64,000 nucleotides of DNA from Acaryochloridaceae cyanobacterium VAR_48_metabat_390 (GTDB lineage Bacteria; Cyanobacteriota; Cyanobacteriia; Thermosynechococcales; Thermosynechococcaceae), in the NCBI GenBank assembly GCA_031422435.1, contig JANPLU010000128.1, forward strand, positions 64,001 through 128,000. Direction: 5' to 3'. The notes under the pieces were generated by a model. That model ran no database searches and had not been told where the DNA came from. It was given only the letters and a program-made list of their open reading frames with translations. Shown piece by piece: positions 9,795-11,968 of this stretch (the stretch's first letter is position 1; each line of letters begins with the position of its first letter). Both the position numbers and the translations under genes were made by a program.

Positions 9795-9985
9795 GGTTTT
9801 TTGTTGTCTAGATTTTGGGCGATCACAGCGCTTAAATCCTCCCAAAACGCCGCGTGCAGCAGATTTTCTTACTTTAGGCTAGCACTTCAGCAAAAAAGTG
9901 AAGCGGGTTCTAGGTGGCTGAGATCACAAATCTAGCCCTCTTACCATCACTCAACATAATTCGCAGAATCACTCAGCAGCATGGG

Positions 9986-10309
9986 ATGCAGTCACTGAGC
10001 AATTCTGCCAAAATCGAGAAGATACATTCATCGAAGAAGACATACATTACCCCTCACAGGAAGCCCACCCTGAAACGCCAGCTTGTTTACGCCTTAAGCA
10101 TTACTGCAGCCCTTGCTACTTCCGTCATTCCCGCCTATGCCAACCCCGTCGCCCCTAGCAGTCGCAGCGGCAACAGCGGTCGCGCCCCGCGCCCATTTAT
10201 CCCCCTGCTCAACAACGTCAGTTTATTGGTGTTTGGGTTCCGCTATGCAATCGACAGCAGCGCCCCTGCTGTGAGTACGGTTTCTAGTGCCAATCCAGTT
10301 CTGTTGTAA
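9986..10309 (+). CDS. Hypothetical protein with a signal-peptide-like segment
   Basis: KRQLVYALSITAALATSVIPAYA (basic, hydrophobic, AxA); start codon uncertain. Confidence 0.35.
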   Translation: MQSLSNSAKIEKIHSSKKTYITPHRKPTLKRQLVYALSITAALATSVIPAYANPVAPSSRSGNSGRAPRPFIPLLNNVSLLVFGFRYAIDSSAPAVSTVSSANPVLL

Positions 10310-10338: not shown

Positions 10339-10890
10339 TTAGCTCAGCGCAGAAATAACGTAGTCAAAATACATTCCACATTCTGAGGCTAAATCAGAGC
10401 AGTCTCCTGAGGTGACTTGCTTCTGAGTAGAGGAGGGGTGGCGACCTGCGTTATTAAAGCTTTGAATATGGGCAATGCAGATGGCCTTCATGATTTTGAG
10501 CGCTCGAACCATGGACGGGATACAGACATTCAGCGTCGTATAGGTTTCTTTCAGCCCGTATACGCAGCGGTTTTCGAGGACGGAAATATCGCCAGCCATG
10601 AGTGCGTAACAGACGTAGCGCAAAATAATTTCGCCATCTCGTAAACAAGCTGCCATCTTACGATTAGGATAACAAGCGCCTCCCTCTTTAATGAGGCTAG
10701 GGTCTTCACAGAGCATTCCAGAGATAGCATCCGAGACACAGCAGCTTGCAATACCAGAAAGAGCCTCAATCGCGTCAAACCGCTTGTTGAGTCCAGCGGT
10801 AATGACTTTAATCTCCTCTAATTCAGCTTTACCCATGCAGGCAGTATTTTTATTTGCACGCTCAGCAACGCGGGAAAATGCATCAAACAA
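10339..10890 (-). CDS. cpeB: Divergent phycoerythrin beta-subunit-like phycobiliprotein (orphan)
   Basis: MFDAFSR start; C50, C61, C82 (AACLRDGEIILRY) and C164 (GDCS) in PE-beta register; YFDYVISALS end; GGAG SD before a TTG start. Confidence 0.85.
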   Translation of the reverse strand: MFDAFSRVAERANKNTACMGKAELEEIKVITAGLNKRFDAIEALSGIASCCVSDAISGMLCEDPSLIKEGGACYPNRKMAACLRDGEIILRYVCYALMAGDISVLENRCVYGLKETYTTLNVCIPSMVRALKIMKAICIAHIQSFNNAGRHPSSTQKQVTSGDCSDLASECGMYFDYVISALS

Positions 10891-11167
10891 GGGAGTCTCC
10901 TTTCCGTTCGGGAATTTCTAGATCTGTAGGTCTAGGGTGATTCCAGACTTGAGCTGATTTCACAGAGGTTCATAATTTTTTATAAAAGAGGGAAAGGTTC
11001 AAAGTGCAAGGGATTAGGGTAGAGCATCACTGCGGAAATTACTTACGCAAATGTGCGGAGATAGCGCATCATTTTAGCCGTCAAGTCGCGTGTATTCAAC
11101 GATGTACTGAGTATGCAGATTCCCAATAATAGGAGACATAGCTTATCAGTGAAACGGAAGACCCACA

Positions 11168-11968
11168 ATGGCTTACAAAACTTCAGCTCACTCCGAAACG
11201 TTAGAACTGTTGATGGCCTATCGCCAGAATCCATCTGTGCATCTTCGTAACCGTGTCGTAAAACTCAATGCAGGCTTAGTCCGTAAAGTAGCGCACCAGC
11301 TCGCCAATCAAAGCCCCCTCCCGTTTGAAGACTTAGAGCAAATTGGCTATATCGGCTTAATTACCGCCGCCGAACGTTTTGACCCGACCCAAGGCTATGC
11401 TTTTAGTTCTTTTGCAGTTCCCTACATTAAGGGCGAAATGCTTCACTTCCTGCGTGACCGCGCCAGTGCCGTGCGAATTCCGAGACGGCTTCAGCAGTTA
11501 AGTAACGAAGGCGCAAAAGTATCGCAGGCTTTGATTGAAAAATTGGGTCGTCAGCCGAATGATCATGAAATTGCAGCAGCGCTGAACATTGACCTCCAGG
11601 AATGGCGTTCAGTTAAGCTGTCTTCTATTAACCGTACACCCATGAGCTTAAACGCCTGCCTCAATGGTGGCGGTTCCCAGCAGGCAGAAGCGGTCATGAC
11701 CTTGGGAGACACCCTTGTAGATGTTCGTAGCCAAATTCAGCAAGACCACGCAGAAGAGCGTTTGGCACTACAGCACGCCTTAAATCAGCTTGAAGATAAA
11801 ACCCGTGAAATCATTGAGGCGGTTTTTCTACATCAGCATTCTCGTCAAGAAGTTGCCGCAAGAATTGGCATTAGCCCCGTAACCGTCACCCGACGTATTA
11901 AAAAGGGGATTGAGCAGCTAGCAGAAATGATTCAGATGCCCAGTTTGACTGTCTTGGCTGAAGGGTAA
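11168..11968 (+). CDS. sigF: Group 3 RNA polymerase sigma factor (SigB/F/G family)
   Basis: DLEQIGYIGLITAAERFDP, FSSFAVPYIKGEMLHFLRD, VRIPRR and HTH GISPVTVTRR motifs. Confidence 0.9.
   Translation: MAYKTSAHSETLELLMAYRQNPSVHLRNRVVKLNAGLVRKVAHQLANQSPLPFEDLEQIGYIGLITAAERFDPTQGYAFSSFAVPYIKGEMLHFLRDRASAVRIPRRLQQLSNEGAKVSQALIEKLGRQPNDHEIAAALNIDLQEWRSVKLSSINRTPMSLNACLNGGGSQQAEAVMTLGDTLVDVRSQIQQDHAEERLALQHALNQLEDKTREIIEAVFLHQHSRQEVAARIGISPVTVTRRIKKGIEQLAEMIQMPSLTVLAEG

Follow-up and report, generated by a model that had tools for sequence, protein, structure and literature searches.

The cpeB2 locus

The window analysed here, a stretch of 64,000 nucleotides from the cyanobacterial genome G000, carries on its reverse strand a gene for a divergent phycoerythrin beta subunit, which we designate cpeB2. 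An earlier note, made from the letters of the window, had described a reading frame opening with TTG, and this was confirmed, at a length of 183 codons, together with a ribosome-binding site (AGGAGA) ahead of the TTG. The gene and its upstream elements are as follows.

10339..10890, minus strand: cpeB2, stand-alone divergent phycoerythrin-beta paralog, 183 aa, TTG start (PF00502, NF058508, solved relatives, clade, dN/dS)
10896..10902, minus strand: ribosome-binding site AAGGAGA, 5 nt before the TTG (from the sequence)
10969..10986, no strand assigned: conserved upstream block, an imperfect direct repeat with a 10-bp period, HLR1 (RpaB)-like, of putative function

The AGGAGA of the ribosome-binding site is invariant in all six aligned upstream regions of cpeB2. 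The TTG itself is real but private to G000, as four of five relatives have ATG at this point and one has GTG, and it carries little weight as a sign of change. The product matched PF00502 with an E value of 1.6e-40, and its best NCBIfam model was that of CpeB (NF058508), at 230.3 bits and thus below the cut-off of 275. A predicted model of CpeB2 (pLDDT 82.9) has helices at residues 4-14 and 21-46, as expected for the X/Y helices of the phycobiliprotein fold; its top Foldseek matches were phycoerythrin beta subunits, as were the solved proteins closest to it by sequence.

The upstream block aligned in all six genomes that carry cpeB2, two of which have different flanking genes. When scored against the HLR1 motif, as defined in the accessible part of PMC6525291, the block reached 13/16 in five genomes including G000, a score of at least 13 being found in 54 of 579 background upstream regions, and 16/16 in G012, which only one of the 579 attained. 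Its likeness to an HLR1 site of RpaB is offered as a lead only, and the site is putative. A scan for the sigma-70 consensus upstream of cpeB2 gave 3 sites against 1.0+/-1.0 expected, and no promoter was called. Among the sequencing runs searched a single RNA run matched, with a word share of 0.04, which does not count as a sign of expression.

Among the neighbours of cpeB2 are genes for a SigF-type sigma factor and for a DCC1-like protein, and also an ORF that matches nothing in Pfam. The SigF-family gene (window 11168-11968, plus strand) lies divergently upstream of cpeB2 and is missing at the cpeB2 locus in the three closest relatives (about 1 kb without a match); a second SigF of G000, on contig C16, is 71% identical to the one beside cpeB2. 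In relatives there are two paired ORFs of 224 and about 320 aa, and the 131-aa ORF at window 9914-10309 (plus strand) seems to be what a deletion near 10186 has left of them.

Bilin sites and diagnostic residues of CpeB2

The residues on which the assignment of CpeB2 turns were located as follows.

10852..10854, minus strand: codon 13, Asn in place of Asp, a diagnostic change of the clade
10708..10743, minus strand: Cys50 to Cys61, the double-attachment bilin site, invariant in 19/19 clade rows and 9/9 canonical rows
10675..10677, minus strand: codon 72, Ala in place of the methylatable Asn, at a position that is variable in the clade
10645..10647, minus strand: Cys82 bilin site, with Arg77, Arg84 and Asp85 kept, invariant in 19/19 clade rows
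10399..10401, minus strand: Cys164 (165) bilin site, with Asn35 and Asp39 kept, invariant in 19/19 clade rows

Cys50, Cys61, Cys82 and Cys164 are in register with phycoerythrin beta, as the earlier note had it, and Asn13 proved to be a true signature of the clade, being Asn in 18/18 clade clusters and Asp in 102/102 other homologues. The other signs of divergence that had been listed are present but less telling. Ala72 is a weak sign, since 22 of the 102 non-clade homologues have Gly there and Asn72 is therefore not strictly defining for CpeB; within the clade (n=18) the position is occupied by A in 8 cases, P in 5, N in 2, D in 2 and G in 1. CpeB2 does have 12 cysteines, but 29 of the 102 non-clade homologues have 9-11 and the clade 10-12, so that little weight attaches to the count. 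The N-terminal X/Y helices have diverged, but only modestly more than among canonical CpeBs: over residues 1-35 CpeB2 matched two canonical CpeBs at 15/35 and 17/35 positions and a red-algal one at 9/35, and pairs of canonical CpeBs matched one another at 18-20/35. A search with PF00891 for the methyltransferase CpcM returned only four marginal matches.

The residues that govern pairing with an alpha subunit were compared with two-hybrid results for CpcA and CpcB, obtained with apo-phycocyanin and not with phycoerythrin, in which the beta substitution D13N bound no weaker (PMC11610994, Table 3) and the crucial residues were R91, Y92, Y95 and R108 of beta and R93 and Y97 of alpha (PMC11610994). 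The four beta residues are kept in 19/19 aligned clade rows; the copy of G016, which was not among these rows, has Cys at 108. The alpha residues matching R93 and Y97 are invariant in an alignment that includes the CpeA of G000 described below, and this CpeA also retains D13, G16, R17, R91 and Y95. With the alpha-contact residues kept and D13N harmless in the two-hybrid assay, pairing of CpeB2 with CpeA stays plausible.

Asn13 recurs in 4 of 27 representatives of beta-like clusters at 50% identity (P0312, P0316, P0317 and P0320), all of them strongly diverged, and P0312 is without Cys50/61. D13N may be a change that betas acquire time and again as they diverge.

A genus-restricted clade of stand-alone beta subunits

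A search for homologues of CpeB2 recovered 17 clusters at 59-96% identity and the more distant P0018, all ranked above the canonical CpeBs. In a tree of 68 rows these clusters and the copies from genomes formed one clade (support 100/99) on a long stem, which in the free tree was not nested in the family's own cpeB. A tree joining the clade with the family's own CpeB was not rejected (AU p=0.56), and cpeB2 may thus have arisen either by duplication or by transfer. Among 48 genomes of the family, cpeB2 was found in six, all of one genus (6 of its 10 genomes), and it is absent from three complete or nearly complete genomes of that genus (G014, G019 and G017). A sample of 400 other genomes of the phylum yielded no clade member, and the nine of them that passed E<=1e-68 all have Asp13 and an adjacent alpha gene. 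The best match in the library at 50% identity was P0018, with no further clade member, and in a pattern scan of metagenomes the best 9 of at least 79 loci, once translated, were all canonical.

No alpha gene lies beside any of the six clade copies, which occupy three different gene contexts, as against 73 of 75 loci at which cpeA lies beside canonical cpeB. The five relatives with cpeB2 all also carry a canonical cpeB adjoining cpeA, its product being ~52% identical to the CpeB2 of G000, and a cluster of three phycoerythrin-type linkers, the third cut by a contig end in two of them. A second cpeA as a hidden partner was sought and none was found, each of the 10 genomes of the genus having at most one cpeA match. 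The cpeB2 copies form a separate clade restricted to this genus, and cpeB2 stands alone in all six genomes examined. Contrary to what had been supposed, it was no orphan at the level of the genome but a clade paralog whose bearers among the relatives have a complete cpeBA and which in G000 itself has a cpeA elsewhere. In the full-text literature covered, to which most subscription papers do not belong, no description of a cpeB2 paralog was found. Two near-canonical cpeBA operons (L112 and L122) were seen in G033, from another genus of the family.

Phycoerythrin genes kept and lost in G000

The genome of G000 (3.70 Mb, 99.99% complete) has 12 matches to PF00502, which by inspection are cpcBA, apcA/B/D/F, two pieces of apcE, two weak matches on contig C99, cpeB2 and cpeA; of these, only the products of cpeB2 and cpeA are of the phycoerythrin type. 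Just one of the 12 lies on the contig of cpeB2. The claim that no alpha subunit lies nearby holds for the 64-kb window, in which no alpha-subunit motif occurs, but not for the genome, as an unpaired cpeA is present on another contig (G000:C37:10386-10880; 276 bits against a cut-off of 225). The earlier note had named just such an unpaired cpeA, in conjunction with incorporation into rods, as evidence against a role outside the antenna, and this half of it is now in hand.

Nor are lyases wanting in the genome, since on the other contigs cpeA, pebA, pebB, cpeY and lyase genes of the S-, T- and HEAT-types were found. CpeA, the adjacent CpeY, PebA and PebB (the last two at C30:126869-128379) all scored above their NCBIfam cut-offs, on contigs other than that of cpeB2, and on C38 genes of the CpeS and CpeT families are grouped with a third, small gene. 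The genes that we take to be cpeF, cpeZ, cpeR and cpeC/D/E were named by gene order, no NCBIfam model scoring above its cut-off. CpeS is reportedly the lyase for Cys82, CpeT that for Cys165, and CpeF is said to attach the doubly linked PEB on beta; the specificity of CpeY for alpha-Cys82 is taken from the name of the NCBIfam CpeY model. The phycobilisome is represented by apcA/B/D/E/F, cpcB/A and linkers of the CpcC-, CpcD- and CpcG-types, including two of the CpcC-type.

Some observations on these gene sets may be recorded here. The apcE gene is split over the contig ends C43/C132, and a CpcC2-like linker over C118/C109, whose ends overlap. The C118 linker had been considered as a CpeE running into the cpeS contig, which was rejected, since C118 overlaps C109 and the gene is the CpcC2-like linker. 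A cassette of a response regulator, a CpcG/CpcL-type linker and a GAF-kinase, found at L139:6739-10808 in G015 and at L135 in G019, resembles what we take to be CcaR-CpcL-CcaS; queries with it in G000 gave only partial matches at 27-54%, with no orthologue of the CcaS/CcaR-like pair. Within the stretch of G015 examined (L228, G015:C42:29800-34600) there is no cpeZ-like gene after cpeY, unlike in G000, G012, G014 and G018. The two weak PF00502 genes at G000:C99:28386-31756 form a cluster with a ferredoxin-like gene; this is probably the photosystem II assembly cluster of the slr0149-type to which the accessible part of PMC6002478 refers.

Alignment of C37 to G018 and G016 showed that 590 bp are missing from G000, comprising the ribosome-binding site and nearly all of canonical cpeB (cpeB1); the last 30 or so bases of the gene remain, and its upstream DNA now abuts cpeA. 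On C38 a deletion running from about 190 bp ahead of cpeC to about 20 bp ahead of cpeS has removed the three phycoerythrin rod linkers cpeC-D-E, which are present in relatives. As about 190 bp upstream of cpeC were lost as well, cpeS-T-R may have lost their promoter. Both deletions are clean and intra-contig, neither lying at a contig end, and no remnants of cpeB1 or cpeCDE were found elsewhere in G000 by tblastn and blastn. Run X1, from which this DNA may come, has a contig that bridges the cpeB1 junction. So do X3 (record 17, with 12 differences over 551 bases) and X4 (record 27, with 12 over 358), which are other samples of the same study. Since contigs of other samples span the junction, the cpeB1 deletion is not an assembly artefact, and it is common to a strain about 2% different. 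G000 has therefore had its normal cpeB and its cpeCDE deleted, and cpeB2, cpeA, pebAB and the lyase genes remain.

Selection on the retained genes

The possibility that cpeB2 is a decaying pseudogene was discounted. Its pairwise dN/dS lies at 0.03-0.17 in 15/15 pairs, against 0-0.07 for cpeB1 in the same genomes, and on the branch to G000, in a custom three-taxon codon model, it was 0.045 (p=2e-4 for omega=1). CpeB2 evolves faster than the genus's own CpeB, and the dS of cpeB2 is above that of cpeB1 in 3/3 close pairs. On the same branch dN/dS was 0.029 for pebA, 0.066 for pebB, 0.083 for cpeY and 0.14 for cpeS (all p<=0.01 against 1), and 0.12 for cpeT (p=0.07 against 1); cpeR was accelerated, at 0.12 against 0.03 (p=0.02). 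The branch values of cpeF (0.49) and cpeZ (0.83) were indistinguishable from 1, with pairwise values of 0.07 and 0.10, and these unstable branch estimates probably stem from too distant an outgroup.

CpeA of G000 behaved differently, its omega being 0.25 on this branch against 0.016 elsewhere (16 times, p=1.5e-6) and still below 1 (p=0.004). Among the 120 CpeA matches listed, that of G000 alone is missing Cys139, which is kept in 119/119 others, and it has a new Cys at position 142, which could be a shifted chromophore site. Nine of its 17 changes fall at near-invariant sites, not significantly fewer than at random (p=0.23), and CpeA may simply be decaying; CpeB2 shows no change on the branch that matches those of CpeA. 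In a low-depth X3 contig (record 21; L016:2249-2378) there are 7 differences from the cpeA of G000, as against 18 in G018. The one X3 contig that covers the codon for Cys139 has the Cys base, and an intermediate strain may exist. As this contig is nearer to G000 than G018 is and still has the Cys139 codon, the changes in CpeA may be recent.

Such losses could be taken to mean that the whole phycoerythrin module is dying in the lineage of G000, with cpeB2 a relic that has not yet had time to show decay. Two large deletions, the change of start codon from ATG to TTG, the acceleration of cpeA and cpeR and the failure to find a CcaS/CcaR-like pair would all fit. Were this so, however, the other genes should drift with CpeA, yet the polarised changes on the branch number 18 nonsynonymous to 14 synonymous in CpeA and 30 to 121 in seven other genes pooled (Fisher p=8e-5; the pool left out cpeR, at 6 to 8, and cpeZ). 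Moreover, no frame examined is broken and the strain about 2% different has the deletion too, so that we consider a dying module very improbable.

Measured against a reference of seven genes taken as highly expressed, the codon adaptation of cpeB2 was 0.63-0.64 (four genomes), that of cpeB1 0.75-0.76 (three genomes) and that of apcD/apcF 0.63-0.66; the likeness to apcD/apcF suggests that CpeB2 is a minor protein. As the constraint on cpeB2 is unchanged after the rod linkers went, its role would need no linkers and would lie outside the rods. The part that CpeB2 plays is thus likely a minor one, away from the main light-harvesting rods.

The alternative that CpeB2 still belongs to the antenna, as a minor beta at particular rod positions in the relatives (compare ApcF in the core) and in G000 as part of a small phycoerythrin disc held on phycocyanin rods by CpcC linkers, seems to us unlikely. 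Every bilin site and pocket residue is kept, codon adaptation resembles that of apcD and apcF, G000 has a full phycobilisome with two CpcC-type linkers, and for the phycoerythrin of low-light Prochlorococcus, with its single alpha site, the accessible parts of PMC6002478 and PMC9916406 describe a minor harvesting role. The unchanged constraint after the loss of three phycoerythrin linkers argues the other way. So does the loss from CpeA of near-invariant residues around the alpha-139 site, which presumably lie at the disc-stacking face.

A parallel state in a second genome of the genus

G019, a complete genome of the genus without cpeB2, has no CpeC orthologue and no phycoerythrin linker that could be found, and it retains pebA, pebB, cpeS, cpeT, cpeY and cpeF- and cpeZ-like genes along with a diverged cpeBA. 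The cpeBA operon lies at L132:9957-12094, with cpeY, the cpeF-like gene, pebA, pebB, cpeS and cpeT elsewhere. Its beta has D13N and Y90C, and its alpha has C139G, R142C and A46E, all three common to the CpeA of G000. Changes in the two alphas coincide at 137, 139, 141, 142 and 161 (104 near-invariant sites, p=8e-4), although four of these five lie in one loop and so are not independent sites; over all sites the overlap is not significant (variability-weighted null, p=0.36). Since synonymous sites put the two alphas far apart (dS about 2), the changes are read as having arisen independently in G000 and G019, and from the sequences we infer that G019 reached a similar linker-free state independently of G000.

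This bears on whether CpeB2 has an alpha partner at all. It could instead act without alpha, in line with the earlier note, as a monomer, a homo-oligomer or with another partner, as a bilin-bound sensor or sink, CpeA being a decaying passenger before cpeY-cpeZ. The relatives have two betas and one alpha each, an alpha gene adjoins 0/6 copies of cpeB2, and CpeA is accelerated where CpeB2 is not. The clade has Asn13 throughout, and according to a review it is Asp13 that prevents two betas from pairing, although the accessible text is ambiguous as to the subunit meant (PMC4553884); a lone cpeB also persists in high-light Prochlorococcus, according to the accessible part of PMC9916406. Against this stand the invariance of the alpha-contact residues, a CpeA that is intact with omega below 1, a cpeY held at 0.083, and the case of G019, which lost the linkers too and yet retains its alpha and beta as a pair. 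On balance we doubt that CpeB2 acts without an alpha.

A proposed role for CpeB2

The reading that we prefer, to which we would give a probability of about one half, is that CpeB2 probably carries PEB and, at low abundance, probably pairs with CpeA in a phycoerythrin that has no linkers and would work outside the rods. PebA and PebB would make PEB; lyases of the S-, T- and CpeF-type would load Cys82, Cys164 and Cys50/61 of CpeB2, and CpeY/Z would load Cys82 of CpeA. CpeB2 and CpeA would then assemble as alpha-beta2 monomers or trimers which, lacking linkers and the alpha-139 bilin, would not stack into normal phycoerythrin rod discs. The pigment, low in amount to judge by codon use, might serve as a green-light or bilin-status signal or as a photoprotective sink and not as a bulk harvester, which is the least secure step of the scheme. 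Of the earlier proposal of a repurposed subunit, the derived and constrained paralog with a probable role outside the rods thus stands, but the picture of a lone beta is not supported; a function as sensor, chaperone or sink is no more than possible.

More tentatively, phycoerythrin may have a second job that is independent of rods, for example in green-light or bilin-status signalling, with a beta dedicated to it in this genus. Loss of the rods would then have left a minimal linker-free phycoerythrin twice independently, each time with beta Asn13 and alpha Cys139->Cys142, echoing Prochlorococcus; we hold this broader proposal to be possible, if somewhat doubtful.

Comparison with known systems

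The C-phycoerythrin beta subunit CpeB of Gloeobacter violaceus (PDB 2vjh_B) has the same fold as CpeB2 (TM about 0.72, 56% identity), and Cys50/61, 82 and 164 as well as the bilin-pocket and alpha-contact residues are common to the two. Unlike CpeB, CpeB2 scores under the family cut-off, lies outside any cpeBA operon, has Asn13 and is free at position 72. CpeB is built into rods by the CpeC/D/E linkers, and it is the genes for those linkers that are deleted in G000, a comparison made at the gene level only. AplA, which is allophycocyanin-like, is likewise a phycobiliprotein paralog proposed to act outside the antenna, and it reportedly has no traditional light-harvesting role; its likeness to CpeB2 is one of description only.

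The earlier note had likened cpeB2 to the lone cpeB of high-light Prochlorococcus, which is likewise a derived single-gene beta kept without phycoerythrin rods and for which sensing has been proposed (accessible parts of PMC9916406 and PMC4890579). The parallel is not supported, in that a cognate unpaired cpeA lies elsewhere in G000 and the relatives carry cpeB2 beside a complete cpeBA. Unlike high-light Prochlorococcus, G000 has a phycocyanin/allophycocyanin phycobilisome, a cpeA and a lyase set, and cpeB2 is a separate lineage, a paralog found in relatives alongside normal cpeBA. It resembles the high-light gene only in standing alone, and the state of G000 is closer to low-light phycoerythrin. 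Phycoerythrin III of low-light Prochlorococcus is an alpha-beta pigment that lies outside normal rods and has a single chromophore site on its alpha (as far as the accessible text of PMC9916406 and PMC6002478 goes), and the CpeA of G000 has lost Cys139. Unlike in phycoerythrin III, separate contigs carry the alpha and beta of G000, the beta is an older paralog, the alpha Cys142 is new and a phycobilisome is present. MpeB of marine Synechococcus is also a second phycoerythrin beta in the same genome, but has its own alpha, mpeA, and linkers (PMC6363710, accessible part), whereas no second alpha was found in any of the 10 genomes of our genus. Further background on phycobiliproteins is given in the accessible parts of PMC2327270, PMC8983314 and PMC5318389.

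The retention of phycoerythrin genes by Prochlorococcus, which has no phycobilisomes, is treated as an unsettled question in the accessible parts of PMC9916406 and PMC6002478. The genus examined here offers a natural comparison for the retention of phycoerythrin in a phycobilisome-bearing background, as it includes genomes with rods and an extra beta (some), with rods and no extra beta (G014), with an extra beta and no rod linkers (G000) and with a diverged pair and no linkers (G019). These contrasting states make a non-antenna role of phycoerythrin directly testable, and CpeB2 would be a naturally occurring beta worth trying as a fluorescent biliprotein.
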